The translations under genes were made by a program, and so were the position numbers. The notes below the pieces were generated by a model, which saw nothing but the letters and a program-made list of their open reading frames with translations, was not told the DNA's origin and did not search any database. DNA of 29,596 bases from an uncultured Gammaproteobacteria bacterium (GTDB lineage: Bacteria > Patescibacteriota > Patescibacteriia > Patescibacteriales > WJLG01): NCBI GenBank assembly GCA_964486475.1, contig CAZALZ010000013.1, positions 1 to 29,596 on the forward strand, read 5' to 3'. This document shows, one piece after another, positions 2,474 through 22,584 of the stretch. Position 1 is the stretch's first letter; each line of letters begins with the position of its first letter.

Positions 2474-3562
2474 ATGAATTTAAATGATTTAAAACAAATT
2501 AAAAAGCTGGATCCGGGCTGTTTGGCCGAATCTTTGGCTTTGCTGCCGGAGCAGATAAAGAGCGTTCGTTCTGAAGCTGAAAAAATAAAATTTCCAGCTG
2601 ACTATGCCGAAATTGACGAAGTTGTTGTTTTTGGCATGGGCGGATCAAATCTCAGCGCCAGAATTATCTCTTCGCTTTTTAAGGATGAATTAAAAGTGCC
2701 GCTGATTATCGCTCCCGGTTATGATGTTCCGGGTTTTGTTGATAAAAAAACTCTTTGCATTTTGTCTTCTTATTCCGGCAACACCGAAGAAACTTTGTCT
2801 GTTTTGCCGGAAATAAAGAAGAGAAAAGTAAAGATTGTCGCGATCGGTGCGTCTTTGAAAGACAGCCTTTTGAAAGAGTCGGCTGAGAAGGATAAAATTC
2901 CAGGTTTGTTTTTTGATTCTTCCGCCAACTATTCAAACCAGCCCCGCGCCGGTTTGGGATATTCTTTGTTCGGATTGCTGTCGATATTGTTGAAGATTAA
3001 GGTTTTAAAAATAAGTTCGGCGGAAATGGATTCAGCCGCCAAAAAAGCGCAAGAGGCGTCCGTATCTTTTGATACAGAGGCCAAAAACAATAAAGCTAAA
3101 GTTTTGGCGGAGAAAATTTCCGGTCAAGGTGTTGTTATTTTGGGCGGAGATTTATTGGAAGGAAGTTTCCACGCCTTAAGAAATCAAATCAATGAGAATG
3201 GCAAAAATTTTTCCACTTATTTGGTTCTGCCGGAAATGAATCATTATGCCTTGGAAGGATTGTCCTTTCCGGCGGCAATCAAAAAGGAATTGATATTTTT
3301 GGCGTTTAATTCTGATTTGTATAATAGCCGCATAAAACAAAGACTTGAATTGACCAAAAAGGTCATAAAGAAAAACGGTTTTCGTCTGGTTGAATATTCT
3401 TTGTCCGGCAGGAATAAATTGGAGCAAGCGGCGGAGATGCTGGCGTTCGGCGGCTGGCTTACTTTTTATCTGGGGATTTTAAACGGTGTTAATCCGTCGC
3501 TGATACCTTGGGTTGATTGGTTCAAAAAAGAATTGAAAAAGAATAAAAAAACCGGCAATTAA
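2474..3562 (+). CDS. SIS-domain bifunctional phosphoglucose/phosphomannose isomerase-like protein
   Basis: GMGGSNLSA and SSYSGNTEETLS SIS motifs, about 360 aa. Start moved to ATG 2474 (MNLNDLKQ...) because the track start at 2429 lies inside the alaS terminator. Confidence 0.65.
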   Translation: MNLNDLKQIKKLDPGCLAESLALLPEQIKSVRSEAEKIKFPADYAEIDEVVVFGMGGSNLSARIISSLFKDELKVPLIIAPGYDVPGFVDKKTLCILSSYSGNTEETLSVLPEIKKRKVKIVAIGASLKDSLLKESAEKDKIPGLFFDSSANYSNQPRAGLGYSLFGLLSILLKIKVLKISSAEMDSAAKKAQEASVSFDTEAKNNKAKVLAEKISGQGVVILGGDLLEGSFHALRNQINENGKNFSTYLVLPEMNHYALEGLSFPAAIKKELIFLAFNSDLYNSRIKQRLELTKKVIKKNGFRLVEYSLSGRNKLEQAAEMLAFGGWLTFYLGILNGVNPSLIPWVDWFKKELKKNKKTGN

Positions 3563-5239: not shown

Positions 5240-5279
5240 CTTAGTTAAGGCTGTATAATTCAACGTCTACCGTAATATT

Positions 5280-8410: not shown

Positions 8411-8469
8411 GTAATATGCAGCAAGTAGTATGTAGTATGGGACGCCATACCGCACAAACTATTCCACTG
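8411..8469. repeat. heptad-repeat hairpin element, copy E1 (between the DUF4870-like gene stop and the ppsA start)
   Basis: GTAATATG-CAGCAAG-TAGTATG-TAGTATG-G-gacg-CCATAC-CGCACAAACTATTCCACTG. The core stem is GTATGG/CCATAC. Its left arm is close to copy E4 (ATGCAGCA.G.TAGTATG). Confidence 0.6.
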
Positions 8470-14438: not shown

Positions 14439-15131
14439 TCACGCAGCTGCTTCTTCTAAAACGACGGCCACTTGAGCCGTGTTTCCCGCCGCTTCAATCC
14501 TTTTTCCCAGCGCAAAGGTCTCTTGGGAAGTTTTTCGCGCATTTTCTCCGTGCGATATTCTTTCCGCCCCAATTTCCAGGAGCCTATTTTTGGCATCCCT
14601 TTTTGCTTCTTCAAGGGATACCATGGCGTTGATTATCACTTTCGCAGTTTTTGAAGCCTCTTGCAGGACATTTCCTGCAGCTCTGATTTGCGGAACGACA
14701 TCAACGAGCCTCTCTTCTTTTAGCCTCTCACTCTCGAAGATTTCAATCAACCTCTCGGAAATTCTCGCGGAAAAAGAGAGATCATCAATTTTTTTTACTT
14801 CTTCGGCATTTAGAGAGGAAACAGCTTCCATTGCTTCTTTAATCTCCCTAATCTCCCTTGCTCTCATTTTGAGGGTTCTTTGTCTCTCGACAATTTCCCT
14901 CGCAATGTTTTTTTGCTCTTCTTCTTTTCGCCTCACTTCTTTTTCTCTTTGATAAATATTTTTAATGCCCGGCAATACGGAACGGAGAAAAAAAACAATT
15001 CCTCCGCTGACAGCAACACTCGCCGCCATGAACAGTCCATACTTGCCACTGAACTCCATTGCCACAACAAAAAGTATGGCTAAAATCACTACTATACCGG
15101 CAATCTTCCCACTCATCTTTAAAAAATTCAT
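14439..15131 (-). CDS. membrane-anchored coiled-coil protein (230 aa), uncharacterised
   Basis: Two N-terminal TM helices (IAGIVVILAILFVVAM, LFMAASVAVSGGIVFFL), then about 170 aa of E/R/K/A-rich heptad-like sequence. No recognised family. Confidence 0.7.
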   Translation of the reverse strand: MNFLKMSGKIAGIVVILAILFVVAMEFSGKYGLFMAASVAVSGGIVFFLRSVLPGIKNIYQREKEVRRKEEEQKNIAREIVERQRTLKMRAREIREIKEAMEAVSSLNAEEVKKIDDLSFSARISERLIEIFESERLKEERLVDVVPQIRAAGNVLQEASKTAKVIINAMVSLEEAKRDAKNRLLEIGAERISHGENARKTSQETFALGKRIEAAGNTAQVAVVLEEAAA

Positions 15132-15302
15132 AAAAACCCCTTTCTGTAAGGTTTTTTTGTTTATTGAATTGTTAAAGAGCGGGAAGAAAATTTTAGGCCT
15201 CGCGGCCGATTCTTTCTAGAATCACAATATCTTATCATAAAAGATATTTTTTGTCAACAAAAGTTAAAGTTATATTAAAAAACGTTTTTTTTGTTAAAAT
15301 AT

Positions 15303-15329
15303 TTAGCACTCTTGACAATAGAGTGCTAA
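15303..15329 (+). promoter_or_regulatory. CIRCE operator (HrcA binding site), perfect match to consensus
   Basis: TTAGCACTC-TTGACAATA-GAGTGCTAA equals the consensus TTAGCACTC-N9-GAGTGCTAA. It ends 18 nt before the hrcA ATG. Confidence 0.92.
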
Positions 15330-15347
15330 TTGAGATATTATGGTGTT

Positions 15348-16055
15348 ATGGATAGAAAACATCAAATACTTGAAGCTATTATTAAAGAACACATCGCATC
15401 CGGCACGCCGGTCGGGTCTTCTGTTTTGGTGGAAAAATGCGGCCTGGATTGCTCACCGGCAACCGTGCGCAATATTATGGTTGAATTGGAAGAAGAAGGG
15501 TTAATCATGCAACCGCACACATCAGCCGGACGCGTGCCGACCGAAGCCGCTTATAACCTATTTATAGAAGAACTGAAAAACGGCCAGCGTAAATTGAAAA
15601 AAGCGCGCGAAAAAGAGCTGAAAGAATTGGATGATAGTTTTTCCGGAGAGGATGAAACAGCCATGCGCGAAACAGCCAAGGCTTTGGCGGCTCTGACCAA
15701 TTCCGCGGTTTTCTGGGCTTTTCATAAAAATAATTTGTATTATACCGGTTTGTCCAATCTTTTTTCCCAGCCGGAATTTATAAATTCCGGTTTGGTCTAT
15801 AATGTTTCAGCGGTGATCGATCGGATGGACGAAATTATTGATTCTATTTTTGAAAAAGTCTCGAGTTCGCCAGGGGGCGGAGCGCAAGTTTTTGTCGGCG
15901 AAGAAAATCCGTTCGGCAATTTCTGCGGTTCTGTTATTGCCAAGTATCGCCTCGGAAATCAAACCGGACTGTTCGGGATTCTCGGACCGATTAGAATGGA
16001 CTATGAGAGGAACTTGGGGCTGGTGGAATATATACTTAATAAGTTGAGGAAATAA
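15348..16055 (+). CDS. hrcA: heat-inducible transcription repressor HrcA, short form (235 aa)
   Basis: N-terminal wHTH (ILEAIIKEHIASGTPVGSSVLVEKCGLDCSPATVRNIMVELEEEGLIMQPHTSAGRVPT) and C-terminal GILGPIRMDYERNLGLVEYI. Start set at ATG 15348 (the track start at 15330 is a TTG abutting CIRCE). Confidence 0.88.
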   Translation: MDRKHQILEAIIKEHIASGTPVGSSVLVEKCGLDCSPATVRNIMVELEEEGLIMQPHTSAGRVPTEAAYNLFIEELKNGQRKLKKAREKELKELDDSFSGEDETAMRETAKALAALTNSAVFWAFHKNNLYYTGLSNLFSQPEFINSGLVYNVSAVIDRMDEIIDSIFEKVSSSPGGGAQVFVGEENPFGNFCGSVIAKYRLGNQTGLFGILGPIRMDYERNLGLVEYILNKLRK

Positions 16056-16079
16056 TTTTTATTATAATAACTGAAAAAA

Positions 16080-16150
16080 GAAAAATGAAATGTGAAAAAT
16101 GAGTAAAGATAAAATTTTTATCATTTTTCATGTTTCTTGTTTCATATTTC
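16080..16150 (+). other. long AT-rich imperfect hairpin between hrcA and grpE
   Basis: The inner arms TGAAAAATGA (16093-16102) and TCATTTTTCA (16121-16130) are perfect. The outer arms GAAAAATGAAA (16080-16090) and TTTCATATTTC (16140-16150) have one mismatch. It ends 7 nt before the grpE ATG. Confidence 0.6.
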
Positions 16151-16157
16151 AAAAGCT

Positions 16158-16628
16158 ATGTCCGAAGAAAAAAAAGTTAAAACAGAAGAAAAAACTGTTG
16201 ACGAGAAAATTCTCGAATTAGAGGCCGAACTGAAGGACGCTAACGATAAGTATATGCGCGCGTTGGCTGAACAGCAGAATCTGGTCAAACGCCAAGCGAG
16301 TGAGAAAGAAGAATTTATCAAATACGCCAACCAGGAAATCATTTTAGAATTCTTAAGCGTTTATGATCACTTGAGAATGTCAATAGATTTCTTGCCGGCC
16401 GAAGAAAAGGACAATGCTTGGGTTAAGGGAGTTGAAATGACGATCAAGCAATTTAAAGATTTATTAAATGTGAATGGCGTGGAAGAAATAAAAACCGTTG
16501 GCGAGAAATTCGACCCGAATACTATGGAAGCCACCGAAGGCACGGGGGAGAAGGTCGCGAAAGAAATTATGGCGGGGTATAAGCTGAATGGGAAAGTAAT
16601 TCGCGCCGCTCGAGTTTTGTTAGAATAA
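16158..16628 (+). CDS. grpE: nucleotide exchange factor GrpE
   Basis: Coiled-coil N-terminus (LELEAELKDANDKYMRALAEQQNLVKR), C-terminal beta domain (FDPNTMEA...GYKLNGKVIRAARV). Start at ATG 16158. Confidence 0.9.
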   Translation: MSEEKKVKTEEKTVDEKILELEAELKDANDKYMRALAEQQNLVKRQASEKEEFIKYANQEIILEFLSVYDHLRMSIDFLPAEEKDNAWVKGVEMTIKQFKDLLNVNGVEEIKTVGEKFDPNTMEATEGTGEKVAKEIMAGYKLNGKVIRAARVLLE

Positions 16629-16638
16629 ATAAATATTT

Positions 16639-16707
16639 GTAGCAGGTAGTATGTAGTATGCAGTATGGAATCTAGACCATACTACTTACTACATATTCCA
16701 TACTACC
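16639..16707. repeat. heptad-repeat hairpin element, copy E2 (grpE stop to hsp20 start)
   Basis: TAGCAGG TAGTATG TAGTATG CAGTATG G-aatctaga-C CATACTA CTTACTA CATATTC CATACTA CC. The outer arms GGTAGTATG (16645-53) and CATACTACC (16699-707) are a perfect 9 bp. The inner arms AGTATGG/CCATACT give 7 bp. Confidence 0.75.
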
Positions 16708-16715
16708 AAAATTAT

Positions 16716-17147
16716 ATGCCTAATTTAATTAAATGGAGTCCATTTTTCGACGGGTTCGAAGATATGGACAAAATGTTTTCCGAATTTGTGCCGGTTGTCA
16801 GACGCGGCGACGCTGGCGGGTTTGTTCCGGCTATCGACGTCTATGAAGACAAAGGCAATCTGATCGTGGAAACGCAATTGGCCGGAATCGATCCGGAAAA
16901 AGTTTCCATCGCCATTGAGAATGATGTTTTAACCATCAAGGGCGAGAGCGAAAAGAAAAGCGAAGTCGAGGATAAAGATTATTATAGAAAAGAAATTAGG
17001 CGCGGTTCGTTTTTCCGCACGATCCAGTTGCCGGCCCATGTTGATGGCGATAAAGCTTCGGCCATTTCCGAGTCAGGTATTTTGAAAATTTCTATCCCGA
17101 AGCGGGAAGAATCCCAACCAAAAACAATTAAAATTGAAAAAAAATAA
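16716..17147 (+). CDS. Hsp20/alpha-crystallin family small heat-shock protein
   Basis: Alpha-crystallin domain: PAIDVYEDKGNLIVETQLAGIDPEKVSIAIENDVLTIKGE...RGSFFRTIQLP...GILKISIPK. Start at ATG 16716; the track extension translates the hairpin. Confidence 0.9.
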   Translation: MPNLIKWSPFFDGFEDMDKMFSEFVPVVRRGDAGGFVPAIDVYEDKGNLIVETQLAGIDPEKVSIAIENDVLTIKGESEKKSEVEDKDYYRKEIRRGSFFRTIQLPAHVDGDKASAISESGILKISIPKREESQPKTIKIEKK

Positions 17148-17150
17148 TAT

Positions 17151-17220
17151 TAGCTGTTGGCAATATGTAGTATGTAATATGGAATTTAAACTATACACCA
17201 TACTGCATATCCCATGCTAC
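17151..17220. repeat. heptad-repeat hairpin element, copy E3 (hsp20 stop to dnaK start)
   Basis: TAGCTGTTGG CAATATG TAGTATG TAATATG G-aatttaaa-CTATACA C CATACTG CATATCC CATGCTA C. GTAGTATG (17167-74) pairs with CATACTGC (17199-206), and TAGC (17151-54) pairs with GCTA (17216-19). Confidence 0.7.
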
Positions 17221-17234
17221 AATTATAAAATTCT

Positions 17235-19154
17235 ATGAGTAAAATATTAGGAATCGACCTAGGAACAACTAACAGTGCCATGGCCATAATCGAAGGCGGA
17301 GCGCCTAAGATTCTGGAGAATGCCGAAGGAATGAGAACAACTCCTTCCATTGTCGCAATCTCTAAATCCGGCGAATGGCTGGTTGGCGCTGCGGCTAAAC
17401 GTCAGGCTGTCACCAATCCCGAGAACACCATCTTTGAGATGAAACGTTTGATCGGCCGTCACTTCAATGACGAAGAAGTTCAGCGCGATTTGAAGAATAT
17501 GCCTTACAAGATCGTGCAGGCCGGAGAAGGCGTGAAAATCATTGTTTCCGGAAAAGAATACACTCCGCAGGAAATTTCTGCCAAGGTTTTGGCGAAATTG
17601 AAAGCTGATGCTGAAGCTCGTTTGGGCGAAAAAATTACCGAAGCGATCATTACTGTTCCGGCTTATTTTGATGATTCTCAAAGACAAGCCACTAAGGATG
17701 CTGGTCAGATCGCCGGTTTGAATGTTAAGCGTATCATCAATGAGCCAACCTCAGCCGCTTTGGCTTACGGTTTGGACAAGAAGCACGGCCATCAAATCGT
17801 TGTCTACGATTTGGGCGGCGGAACTTTTGATGTTTCCATTCTTGATGTCGGCGGCGATAGCGTTATGGTTAAAGCAACTAATGGCGACACTCATTTAGGC
17901 GGCGCGGATTTTGACCAGCGCGTTATCAATTGGATTTTAGAAGAATTCCGCAAAGAGGAAGGCGTCGATCTTTCCAAAGATCCGTTGGCTTTGCAGAGAA
18001 TCAAGGAAGCGGCCGAGAAAGCCAAGATCGAATTGTCTTCTTCTATGGAGACAGAAATCAATCAGCCGTTCATAACTGTTGGTGCTGAAGGTCCGAAACA
18101 TTTAGTTAAAAAAATGACTCGCGCGAAATTGGAAGAGTTGGTCGGCGATTTGGTCGAGAAAACCATTGAGCCTTGCAAAAAGGCTTTGACCGATGCCGGT
18201 TTGAAAGTGGAGGATTTGGAAGAAGTTGTTTTGGTTGGCGGTATGACTCGTATGCCAATGGTGCAAAAATTGGTTAAAGACTTCTTTAAGAAAGAACCGA
18301 ATATGTCGGTTAATCCGGACGAAGTGGTTGCAGCTGGCGCCGCTGTTCAGGGCGGTGTCTTGCAGGGTGATGTTAAAGATATTTTGCTTTTGGATGTTAC
18401 TCCGTTGACTTTAGGTATTGAAACTTTGGGCGGCGTGGCCACTCCATTGATTGAACGCAATACCACTATCCCGACTCAAAAATCGCAAATATTTTCTACC
18501 GCAGCTGATTCTCAGACCAGCGTGGAAATCAAAGTCGTTCAAGGCGAACGCCCGATGGCGGCTGACAATAAAGTCCTGGGCAATTTTATGCTCGACGGAA
18601 TTCCGCCGGCTCCTCGCGGCGTTCCACAGGTTGAAGTTAAATTCGACATTGACGCTAACGGAATTCTGAATGTTTCCGCGATGGACAAAGCTTCCGGTAA
18701 AACTCAGAATATTACTATCACTGCTTCTTCCGGACTTTCCAAGGAAGAAGTGGAGAAGATGAAAAAAGAAGCTGAAGCGCACGCCGAGGAAGACAAGAAA
18801 AAGAAAGAAAAAATAGATTTGAAGAATCAGGCCGATGCCGCGGTTTTCCAAACCGAGAAATTGATCAAAGATATGGGCGCGAAAATGTCGCCAGAAGATG
18901 TCAAAACTTTGACCGACCATGTTGAAGATTTGAAAAAGATCAAAGACGGTGATGACATTGAAGCGATCAAAAAGAAATTGGAAGAAATGAACCAGGCTGC
19001 GCAGACCATCGGCGGGAAAATGTACCAATCCGCCCAGGGCGGACAAGCAGCCGGCGCTCAACCGGGAGCTGAACAAGCTGGCGCCGAACAACCAAAGTCC
19101 GAAGATAAAAAAGACGAAGGCCCAGTTGAAGGTGAATACGAGGAGAAAAAGTAA
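17235..19154 (+). CDS. dnaK: molecular chaperone DnaK (Hsp70)
   Basis: [29 protein letters not shown] and the other canonical Hsp70 signatures; 639 aa. Confidence 0.97.
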
Positions 19155-21370: not shown

Positions 21371-21372
21371 TA

Positions 21373-21444
21373 GTAGCATGCAGCAGATAGTATGGTATAT
21401 GGTTTTTGCAACCGCCATATTACATGCCGCATATTCCATACTAC
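21373..21444. repeat. heptad-repeat hairpin element, copy E4 (DUF3467 stop to dnaJ start)
   Basis: GTAGCATG CAGCAGA TAGTATG GTATATG G-tttttgcaaccg-CCATATTA CATGCCG CATATTC CATACTA C. The outer arms GTAGCATG/CATACTAC match 7 of 8. The inner arms ATATGG/CCATAT give 6 bp. It ends 4 nt before the dnaJ ATG. Confidence 0.7.
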
Positions 21445-21448
21445 AAAA

Positions 21449-22525
21449 ATGAGTAAAGATTATTATAAAATTTTAGGAGTGGAAAGAAGTGCCGGCGCTG
21501 ATGAAGTCAAGAAGGCGTTTTTAAGGTTGGCTCATGAATATCATCCCGATAAGACCGGCGGCGACGATGCGAAATTTAAAGAAATTAATGAGGCCTACCA
21601 AGTTTTGGGAAATAAAGAAAAACGCGCGCAATATGATCAATTCGGCTCGGCGGGACCGAACATGGGAGGATTTGGCGCCGGTCGAGGATTTGGCGGTTTT
21701 CAGGGTGGAGGAATGAATATTAATATGGATGATCTGGGTGAAATGTTCGGGGGATTCGGGGATATTTTCGGTTTTGGCTCTTCTCGCTCTAGTCGCGGAA
21801 AATCAAGGCGCGGAGCAGATATCGAAGCTGAACTGACCGTTGACTTTGAAGAAGCGGTTTTCGGCGCGGAAAAGGAAGTTTCTTTGCGTAAAAAAATAAT
21901 TTGCGATCGTTGCCATGGTTCCGGCGCCGAGCCAGGAGCGAAAATGGAAAACTGCTCCACTTGCGGCGGACGCGGGAGGATTCGTTATGTCCAACAAACC
22001 ATTTTGGGTGATATTCAAACCGAAACCACTTGCCGCGCCTGCAACGGCGAAGGAAAGATTCCTTCTCAGAAATGCGCTAAATGCCACGGGAGCGGGGCAA
22101 TTAATGACAGTGTTAAATTTAAAGTTAAAATTCCGGCCGGCGTGGATGATGGCGGACGCATCCGCTTAGCCGGTTATGGCGAAGCCGGAGATAAAGATGC
22201 CGGTGCCGGTGATTTGTATTTAAATATCCGCGTGCGCCATAGTTCCAAATTTGTCCGAGAAGATTATGATATTCTTACTAAAAAAGAAATAACTTTTACT
22301 CAGGCGGCCTTGGGTGATAAAGTGGAAATTGAAACCATCCACGGTAAAGTGGAGTTGAAAATCCCGGAAGGCACTCAGTCGGGAACGGTTTTCAAATTAA
22401 AAAATAAAGGGATTCCGCATATCGGCAGTAAAATTACGGGCGATCATTTGGTGGAGATCATAATTAAAACGCCTAAAAATTTAACTGGTAAGCAGAAAAA
22501 AACTTTAAAAGAATTAAACATTTAA
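21449..22525 (+). CDS. dnaJ: molecular chaperone DnaJ (type I)
   Basis: J domain (DYYKILGV...YHPDK), G/F-rich region, four CxxCxGxG zinc-finger repeats (CDRCHGSG, CSTCGGRG, CRACNGEG, CAKCHGSG). Start at ATG 21449. Confidence 0.95.
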   Translation: MSKDYYKILGVERSAGADEVKKAFLRLAHEYHPDKTGGDDAKFKEINEAYQVLGNKEKRAQYDQFGSAGPNMGGFGAGRGFGGFQGGGMNINMDDLGEMFGGFGDIFGFGSSRSSRGKSRRGADIEAELTVDFEEAVFGAEKEVSLRKKIICDRCHGSGAEPGAKMENCSTCGGRGRIRYVQQTILGDIQTETTCRACNGEGKIPSQKCAKCHGSGAINDSVKFKVKIPAGVDDGGRIRLAGYGEAGDKDAGAGDLYLNIRVRHSSKFVREDYDILTKKEITFTQAALGDKVEIETIHGKVELKIPEGTQSGTVFKLKNKGIPHIGSKITGDHLVEIIIKTPKNLTGKQKKTLKELNI

Positions 22526-22584
22526 TTTTAAATTTTATTTTAACGTAGGAACAGAGAGGGTATTTCCGATTTAGCAGTAAAAAT

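Follow-up and report, generated by a model that had tools for sequence, protein, structure and literature searches.

A perfect CIRCE operator enclosing a putative -35 element precedes a lineage-typical short HrcA gene in a Patescibacterial chaperone cluster

The contig CAZALZ010000013.1, from a bacterium that the GTDB taxonomy places in the Patescibacteriota, was analysed over its whole length of 29,596 nt, hereafter called the window; Patescibacteria are organisms with small genomes. On its plus strand the window carries the genes hrcA-grpE-hsp20-dnaK...dnaJ, an order confirmed by Pfam, and the first of them encodes a 235-aa form of the heat-shock repressor HrcA. HrcA and its operator, the inverted repeat that controls the expression of chaperones (CIRCE), form one of the most widespread bacterial heat-shock circuits. 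The operator upstream of this hrcA shows the 9-nt inverted repeat TTAGCACTC/GAGTGCTAA with the exact 9-nt separation, and its spacer, TTGACAATA, contains a TTGACA hexamer that is followed downstream by TATTAT and the hrcA start codon. A preliminary description of this DNA had listed the perfect CIRCE, the spacer TTGACA, the TATTAT and the ATG, and our reading of the sequence confirmed every coordinate (Table 1).

With up to three mismatches allowed, the CIRCE pattern has a single match in the 29.6-kb window, compared with 0.01 expected by chance. A relaxed scan of the window found no further CIRCE with a 9-nt spacer and up to four mismatches, and no isolated half-site with at most one mismatch elsewhere; the sole other four-mismatch match, at 22571, has a 7-nt spacer. 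The scans agree with the earlier statement that no second CIRCE precedes grpE, hsp20, dnaK or dnaJ, and because groES and groEL lie outside the window, "CIRCE only at hrcA" is valid for these 29.6 kb and not for the genome. The TTGACA/TATTAT pair is the top sigma-70-like plus-strand match of the region (11 of 12 positions), and the probability of TTGACA falling inside a 9-nt spacer is about 1.3e-3 at the composition of the window (41% GC). The hrcA ATG lies 6 nt past the end of TATTAT, with the -10 at -12 to -7 counted from the A of this codon. In a Bacillus-type layout, the true promoter would instead lie upstream of CIRCE, CIRCE would be part of the transcribed leader, and TTGACA and TATTAT would be accidents of AT-rich DNA; 5.3 chance promoter-like matches are in fact expected in the 2.5 kb scanned. 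However, no plus-strand promoter-like site was found upstream of CIRCE in the intergenic region, where TTGACA occurs on the minus strand (15257-15252), and the embedded pair departs from the consensus at only one position. A plus-strand TTGTCA near 15253, considered as an upstream promoter, was rejected as being really this minus-strand TTGACA, which serves the divergent gene. The divergent promoter (15257-15229, TTGACA-17-TAAGAT preceded by TG) is a good one and faces the minus-strand gene 14439-15131, which encodes a 230-aa protein without assigned function, so that the hrcA intergenic region holds two back-to-back promoters. The CIRCE hairpin was also considered as a minus-strand terminator and rejected, as no minus-strand gene ends there.

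Table 1. Positions of the hrcA operator, the putative promoter elements, the chaperone genes and the repeat hairpins in the window
Feature	Position	Strand	Remarks
CIRCE operator	15303-15329	+	zero mismatches to consensus; about -45 to -19 as counted from the predicted start
CIRCE left arm TTAGCACTC	15303-15311	+	
CIRCE spacer TTGACAATA	15312-15320	+	9 nt
Putative -35 hexamer TTGACA	15312-15317	+	within the CIRCE spacer
CIRCE right arm GAGTGCTAA	15321-15329	+	
Alternative -10, GATATT	15334-15339	+	TG-extended; 16-nt spacing
Putative -10 hexamer TATTAT	15336-15341	+	18-nt spacing from TTGACA
Predicted hrcA transcription start	15348	+	A of the ATG (leaderless or leader of at most 2 nt); from geometry
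hrcA	15348-16055	+	235 aa; ATG in frame with the open reading frame ending at 16055
HrcA beta1-turn-beta2 hairpin AVFWAF-HK-NNLYYTG	15705-15746	+	residues 120-133; site of the ~100-aa inserted domain of long HrcAs
Hairpin upstream of grpE	16072-16151		
grpE	16158-16628	+	Pfam PF01025; ATG start, open reading frame list extends to TTG 16137
Hairpin upstream of hsp20	16639-16706		
hsp20	16716-17147	+	143 aa, revised start; Pfam PF00011; mechanical start 16665
Hairpin upstream of dnaK	17151-17219		
dnaK	17235-19154	+	Pfam PF00012, 858 bits
Hairpin upstream of dnaJ	21371-21443		
dnaJ	21450-22525	+	revised start (MSKDYYKILGV); Pfam DnaJ domains; mechanical start 21392, J domain from residue 23 of the longer frame
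Hairpin upstream of ppsA	8419-8469	-	

For 58 species-representative genome loci and the window (59 loci), we determined where hrcA starts and which CIRCE and which -35/-10 pair fit best. A CIRCE with at most three mismatches stands upstream of the short hrcA in 57 of the 58 genome loci, with zero mismatches in most lineages, and at every CIRCE-bearing short-HrcA locus operator and core promoter overlap, following one of three layouts. Type A, with TTGAC(A) in the CIRCE spacer, comprises 31 loci including the window; type B, with TATAAT or TATACT in the spacer and TTGACA 16-18 nt upstream, comprises 7; and in type C (20 loci) the promoter is upstream and its -10 abuts or overlaps the left arm, the classical arrangement over the start site. 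All 31 type-A loci have a -10 at +32 to +36 from the CIRCE start, and the distance between -35 and -10 stays at 16-18 nt whatever the register of TTGAC in the spacer: register 9 goes with a -10 at +32/33, register 11 with +33-35 and register 13 with +36. Since the -10 moves with TTGAC across three registers, the pair appears to be a working promoter rather than a conserved operator flank. TTGAC was found in the spacer of none of 14 CIRCEs upstream of long-form hrcA genes, several actinobacterial ones having a TAnnnT-like hexamer there. Judged from sequence, the promoter-in-operator layout is not a product of chance. In addition, perfect CIRCEs are kept where the short HrcA is the sole HrcA detected, which argues that the short form binds CIRCE. 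The type-B loci are L034, L035, L043, L047, L049, L050 and L052, from Uhrbacteria and Peregrinibacteria-like genomes. At another locus, L057, CIRCEs with a -10 in the spacer at 3383 and 7652 precede clpB and dnaK, and hrcA has no CIRCE directly upstream.

The same module was found in metagenomes, where the pattern TTAGCACTC-TTGACNNNN-GAGTGCTAA retrieved at least 120 loci, 116 of those listed having downstream sequence; the metagenomic counts given here and below are among the matches listed. A TAnnnT -10 is present at +31 to +33 in 97 of the 116 (84%). The downstream gene is hrcA at 38 loci (37 with a short-form length or truncated at the edge of the contig), dnaK at 25, a Clp ATPase, clpB included, at 11, clpP at 8, groES at 5, hsp20 at 3 and groEL at 1, the clpP, Clp ATPase and groEL assignments being confirmed by Pfam. 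As the TTGAC-CIRCE module heads several chaperone and protease genes, it seems to be a general HrcA-controlled promoter design in these organisms and not a peculiarity of hrcA. Most of the dnaK promoters carry a second CIRCE just past the -10 (L081, L095, L096, L100, L102, L109, L115, L126, L149, L155 and others): the first has TTGAC in its spacer, and the second, TTGGCACTC-N9-GAGTGCTAA, begins about 46 nt after the first, directly past the -10 and over the predicted start site. For the Bacillus-type layout, the 20 type-C loci among the 59 do have an upstream promoter with CIRCE over the start site, and L028 and L032 combine an upstream promoter with TTGAC in the spacer. Against it stand the conserved spacer TTGAC, the -10 that tracks it, and the correctly spaced -10 at the large majority of metagenomic TTGAC-CIRCEs, and we regard this layout as quite improbable for the window.

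The position of the putative promoter bears on how the hrcA message begins. Of the 31 type-A genome loci, 13 have 6-9 nt between the end of the -10 and the hrcA ATG, another has 11 nt, and the others show 18-159 nt. In the metagenomes, 17 of 38 hrcA loci have a corresponding distance of 4-9 nt, and 5 of 8 clpP loci have one of 6-9 nt; for dnaK the distance clusters at 83-86 nt and for groES it ranges from 33 to 117 nt. About 40-45% of the hrcA loci thus show close geometry (4-11 nt). In 12 of the 14 close-geometry genome loci, other starts are barred by a stop codon in frame 6-21 nt upstream, and the next ATG in that frame comes at about codon 44, within the recognition helix of the winged helix-turn-helix (wHTH) domain. 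The ATG is then the sole usable start at these loci, and therefore a transcript from the embedded promoter would begin at it or within a few nt of it. The preliminary description had suggested that hrcA is possibly leaderless, and this geometry, 6-11 nt in 14 of 31 type-A loci with 12 of the 14 lacking another start, is consistent with a possibly leaderless hrcA mRNA. Translation could alternatively start at the upstream in-frame TTG 15330, back to which the reading frame is open, giving a 241-aa protein from a leadered transcript that originates elsewhere. That codon, however, falls within the promoter, after the right arm of CIRCE and before the -10; homologs begin with M-D/E-x-R-K; and the stop codons at loci of the same geometry bar such an extension in all but two of the 14. 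A start at TTG 15330 is very improbable.

The window HrcA consists of a wHTH domain (residues 1-77), linker helices (about 78-117) and a GAF-like domain (about 103-235), and has no inserted dimerising domain. Residues 2-82 of the wHTH region align to residues 17-97 of the characterised long reference, the 338-aa Thermotoga maritima HrcA 1STZ (E 2.5e-14), and the motif S-x-A-T-(I/V)-R-N...P-H-T-S-A-G-R-(I/V)-P-T is invariant in 69 homologs; the Pfam PF03444 match is sub-threshold (17.6 vs 21). The GAF-like C-terminal domain contains the GPxRMxY motif, which is likewise invariant in homologs. In a MAFFT E-INS-i alignment of 21 short and 20 long HrcAs, the short forms differ from the long ones by one contiguous gap of about 100-115 aa between strands beta1 (AVFWAF, 120-126) and beta2 (NLYYTG, 129-133), in agreement with the earlier proposal that the loss is internal. 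The alignment to Thermotoga HrcA that had been proposed for finding the missing domain placed the block at about residues 140-235 of 1STZ (transitively, via the long form L071 aligned to 1STZ), with about 105 residues of 1STZ having no counterpart in the window protein; the block comprises three predicted strands and then helices. Liu et al. (2005) are said to have named an "inserted dimerizing domain" (IDD) of T. maritima HrcA, which reportedly holds most of the crystal dimer contact, and we take the missing block to be this domain. A structural-outlier survey table records an insertion in the GAF-like domain d1stza2. By alignment, the window HrcA is without the IDD and has a two-residue beta turn in its place. 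The hairpin around this turn is the most conserved C-terminal segment among close relatives, W123, A124 and Y131-G134 being invariant in the close set. The AlphaFold2 model of the window HrcA, built with 69 homologs (pLDDT 88, pTM 0.85), is confident across the junction and shows a clean beta-hairpin there, and a Foldseek search with the model gave E 4e-12 and TM-scores of 0.78 (query-normalised) and 0.58 (target-normalised).

Family models score the protein low. TIGR00331 gives 172.4 bits against a cutoff of 197.2, with an alignment in two stretches that breaks at residue 121, and because the score is below this cutoff NCBI labels the short HrcAs "hypothetical protein" (records P0006, P0023, P0025, P0033 and others); JGI calls them heat-inducible repressor. 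This annotation gap touches the whole phylum. NF003033, a 264-position "HrcA family" model, matches only residues 1-98 (65.7 bits vs a cutoff of 248), so that the window HrcA is not a member, and the model shows that other short HrcAs have already been catalogued. The assignment to HrcA is consistent with context, as the window and its relatives have the cognate CIRCE at the gene's own promoter and linkage to grpE and dnaK.

The low TIGR00331 score and the "hypothetical protein" names are what one would expect if the short HrcA were decayed, truncated or mis-assembled and its CIRCE a relic. The length distribution of homologs points the other way. A word-indexed search found more than 7,800 HrcA homologs, the best 120 being nearly all about 225-251 aa long. 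An exhaustive HMMER search covered 1.84 billion representatives clustered at 50% identity. Of these, 9,640 clusters reached E <= 1e-3 and 311 reached E <= 1e-30, and the best 150 of the 9,640 are all end-to-end alignments, almost all of about 220-245 aa. In 58 loci with a complete gene, from one genome per GTDB species, HrcA has 224-249 aa, with one reading frame, L040, of 284 aa; the HrcAs of the loci ranking next, which are from Actinobacteria, Myxococcota, Proteobacteria and Clostridia, have 329-367 aa. The nearest homologs are labelled Patescibacteria (Falkowbacteria, Uhrbacteria, Magasanikbacteria, Kuenenbacteria, Saccharibacteria, Peregrinibacteria, Kazan and others). An exact-sequence lookup found no identical sequence on record for the window HrcA, the closest relatives being those of L201 (94% identical) and L097 (80%). 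From these lengths, 235 aa is the normal size of HrcA in the Patescibacterial lineage. The preliminary description had called the protein shorter than usual, which holds against characterised HrcAs (338 aa for 1STZ and 329-367 aa for the long forms) and not within the lineage; the rarity that it implied is wrong for the phylum. Nor is there a frameshift or an assembly gap, the possibility it had raised, as this length recurs in hundreds of independent homologs and the structural model is confident where the gap is closed. Decay or mis-assembly is effectively refuted by a length and architecture common to at least 150 clusters (50% identity) and 58 species genomes, by the confident fold, by the invariant wHTH and GPxRMxY motifs and by the zero-mismatch CIRCE in most lineages. 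The window HrcA is a genuine, lineage-typical minimal HrcA made of a winged-helix and a GAF-like domain. In a neighbour-joining tree, a crude one without support values that can serve only as a hint, the Patescibacterial short HrcAs all group together. Short, IDD-less HrcAs also occur outside Patescibacterial labels, in L051 and L068 (Candidatus Omnitrophota) and L042 (Bdellovibrionales), and the same crude tree places those of L051 and L068 among the long forms. The IDD may have been lost more than once, or the bins may be contaminated.

We consider it probable that the Patescibacterial hrcA-grpE-hsp20-dnaK(-dnaJ) cluster of the window is headed by a compact, self-repressed promoter that combines a -35 in the CIRCE spacer, a leaderless hrcA and a minimal HrcA. 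HrcA bound to both CIRCE arms (about -45 to -19) would sterically shut RNA polymerase out of the -35, and this occlusion would result in negative autoregulation of the chaperone cluster. Transcription that escapes would start at the ATG or within about 2 nt of it, giving a leaderless hrcA message that would be translated as such. The short HrcA would bind CIRCE as a dimer through a different interface, for which GAF-GAF contacts or the conserved aromatic hairpin are the most plausible candidates, and derepression on heat or folding stress may proceed via GroE titration as in Bacillus subtilis (PMC6032397). The notion, already put forward in the preliminary description, that the repressor binds across its own -35 finds computational support in the spacer TTGAC of 31 of the 59 loci, in the tracking of the -10 and in the 97 of 116 metagenomic sites listed.

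Several points weigh against this compact-promoter reading. The comparative counts are phylogenetically non-independent. L201 and L097 keep the CIRCE/-35/-10 module, yet in both a GC-rich insert of about 110 nt stands in front of the hrcA ATG and turns the leaderless layout into a leadered one; leaderlessness is thus neither universal nor essential, and is labile. A Shine-Dalgarno sequence is recognisable in only about 3-4 of the 28 window genes. Finally, dimeric CIRCE binding by the short form is an assumption, because the crystal dimer is reportedly held mainly by the missing domain. The insertion of L201 (700-865) lies between the -10 and the ATG and contains short direct and inverted repeats (e.g. 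GCGAACGGGACA twice), and L097 has the same type of insertion, with CIRCE at 5255 and the hrcA ATG at +153. The missing Shine-Dalgarno at hrcA was considered as evidence of a leaderless message and rejected as uninformative, since most window genes are without one. In many window genes a TAnnnT hexamer lies no more than about 10 nt from the ATG. Initiation of translation seems to be largely Shine-Dalgarno-independent in this organism and is possibly often leaderless.

The question of dimerisation allows two further proposals. The short HrcA may not be a self-sufficient homodimer: two monomers could cooperate weakly, or a partner such as GroEL could supply dimerisation, and the mechanism of regulation would then depart from that of canonical HrcA. 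The domain that reportedly makes the main dimer contact of 1STZ (Liu et al. 2005) is absent, and the wHTH plus GAF-like architecture resembles IclR-type regulators, which oligomerise differently. The operator, however, is still a perfect 9-9-9 palindrome, as a symmetric dimer predicts, the conserved GAF-like motifs common to the long forms are kept, and no conserved candidate partner gene was found beside hrcA in the window and its relatives except grpE and dnaK; we find this explanation improbable. The other proposal, tentative and in our estimate rather unlikely, is a Patescibacterial "core" HrcA in which the IDD would be dispensable for CIRCE recognition and the FWAF-HK-NNLYYTG hairpin or GAF-GAF contacts would hold the dimer. 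If it were true, core HrcA, a -35 in the operator and a leaderless message would make up about the smallest self-contained heat-shock switch known. A 235-aa two-domain HrcA facing a perfect palindrome would allow the parts of HrcA for dimerisation, DNA binding and chaperone sensing to be told apart. We know of only one apo HrcA structure, whose dimer is reportedly held by just the domain that is missing throughout a major lineage, and the short form may be more tractable for a co-structure with DNA. The embedded -35/-10 and the leaderless geometry also give concrete promoter and transcription-start predictions for organisms with almost no experimental genetics.

The gaps between the chaperone genes contain hairpins whose arms are 7-nt tandem repeats (GTAGTAT/CATACTA or GAAAAAT/TCATGTT). 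Two of them, in the hrcA-grpE and grpE-hsp20 gaps, are the window's longest inverted repeats, with 36-37-nt arms and 8-nt loops. The hairpins end 6-16 nt before the start codons of grpE, hsp20, dnaK, dnaJ and ppsA, the distance being 6-15 nt for the first four genes. Predicted stabilities of the four operon hairpins are -22 to -27 kcal/mol (z -2.2 to -5.0), the ppsA hairpin being weaker (-16.1 kcal/mol, z -1.1). For the motif CATACTACATACTAC, 11 occurrences were counted where 0.1 would be expected. The mechanical open reading frame starts of grpE, hsp20 and dnaJ are too far upstream, their additional 5' stretches being hairpin arms; that of hsp20 was revised via L201, in which a stop closes the upstream frame, and 16716 is its most likely start. 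A search of the operon against Rfam returned only sub-threshold, spurious hairpin matches. The L201 hairpin at the hrcA-grpE position is built from a different heptad, and the heptad-hairpin motif is limited to the species group L201-L204. A strong hairpin after hrcA is not general in other Patescibacterial loci (percentiles scatter from 0 to 0.9), and the heptad hairpins are on this account specific to the species group. Candidate roles are translational control, mRNA processing, stabilisation, or an origin as small mobile palindromes; at grpE, hsp20, dnaK and dnaJ the hairpins might provide a second level of control, acting on translation or on mRNA processing. In L201, the hsp20-dnaK spacer (2645-3000) has an additional 70-aa open reading frame flanked by inverted heptad-repeat arms (GCTAAAT GATGAAT GCTAAAG ... 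/ ...ATTTAGC ATTCATC ATTTAGC), which looks like a small inserted element and is absent from the window. The window genes include one for a type IV secretion system pilin and none for groES or groEL; the remainder are housekeeping genes.

The HrcA/CIRCE system itself is textbook knowledge, and we did not find an IDD-less HrcA as a lineage norm, systematic promoter hexamers in the CIRCE spacer or a recurrent leaderless geometry described. No description of HrcA in Patescibacteria or the candidate phyla radiation was found in the literature searched, the lone co-mention being an unrelated oral-microbiota study. The B. subtilis type of HrcA/CIRCE control, reportedly described by Zuber and Schumann in 1994 for the hrcA-grpE-dnaK-dnaJ operon, shares with the window the identical operator consensus TTAGCACTC-N9-GAGTGCTAA, hrcA as the first gene of the chaperone operon and, as proposed here, negative autoregulation by steric interference at the core promoter. 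Unlike in that type, where the operator is at or after the start site, the window operator surrounds the -35, hrcA is predicted to have no leader, and the repressor is about 100 aa shorter. The T. maritima protein 1STZ differs by the roughly 105 residues (about 140-235, three strands plus helices, the presumed IDD) that the window HrcA does not have. The NF003033/PRK03911 model, which presumably represents the Epsilonproteobacterial short HrcA, is also distinct, since its match to the window protein is confined to residues 1-98. The GroE titration model of B. subtilis HrcA/CIRCE control is summarised in PMC6032397 and PMC7464140. In Mycoplasma, CIRCEs lie upstream of chaperone promoters (PMC4245973), and the Mollicutes resemble the present case in having CIRCE upstream of the chaperone -10, reduced genomes and HrcA among the few regulators kept (PMC4245973, PMC5138195); a -35 embedded in the CIRCE spacer is not described for them in these papers, nor in PMC7464140. 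The footprints of Campylobacter jejuni and Helicobacter pylori HrcA cover the start site or core promoter, and the Epsilonproteobacterial HrcAs are, like the window protein, shorter than the 340-aa norm and bind CIRCE-like repeats over the core promoter (PMC7464140). The IclR family (TtgV 2XRN, T. maritima IclR 1MKM) differs from the window HrcA in that no Pfam or NCBIfam model of it matches and the domain orientation is different (TM about 0.27); the resemblance is at the level of the fold only, and the operator and genomic context are those of HrcA.

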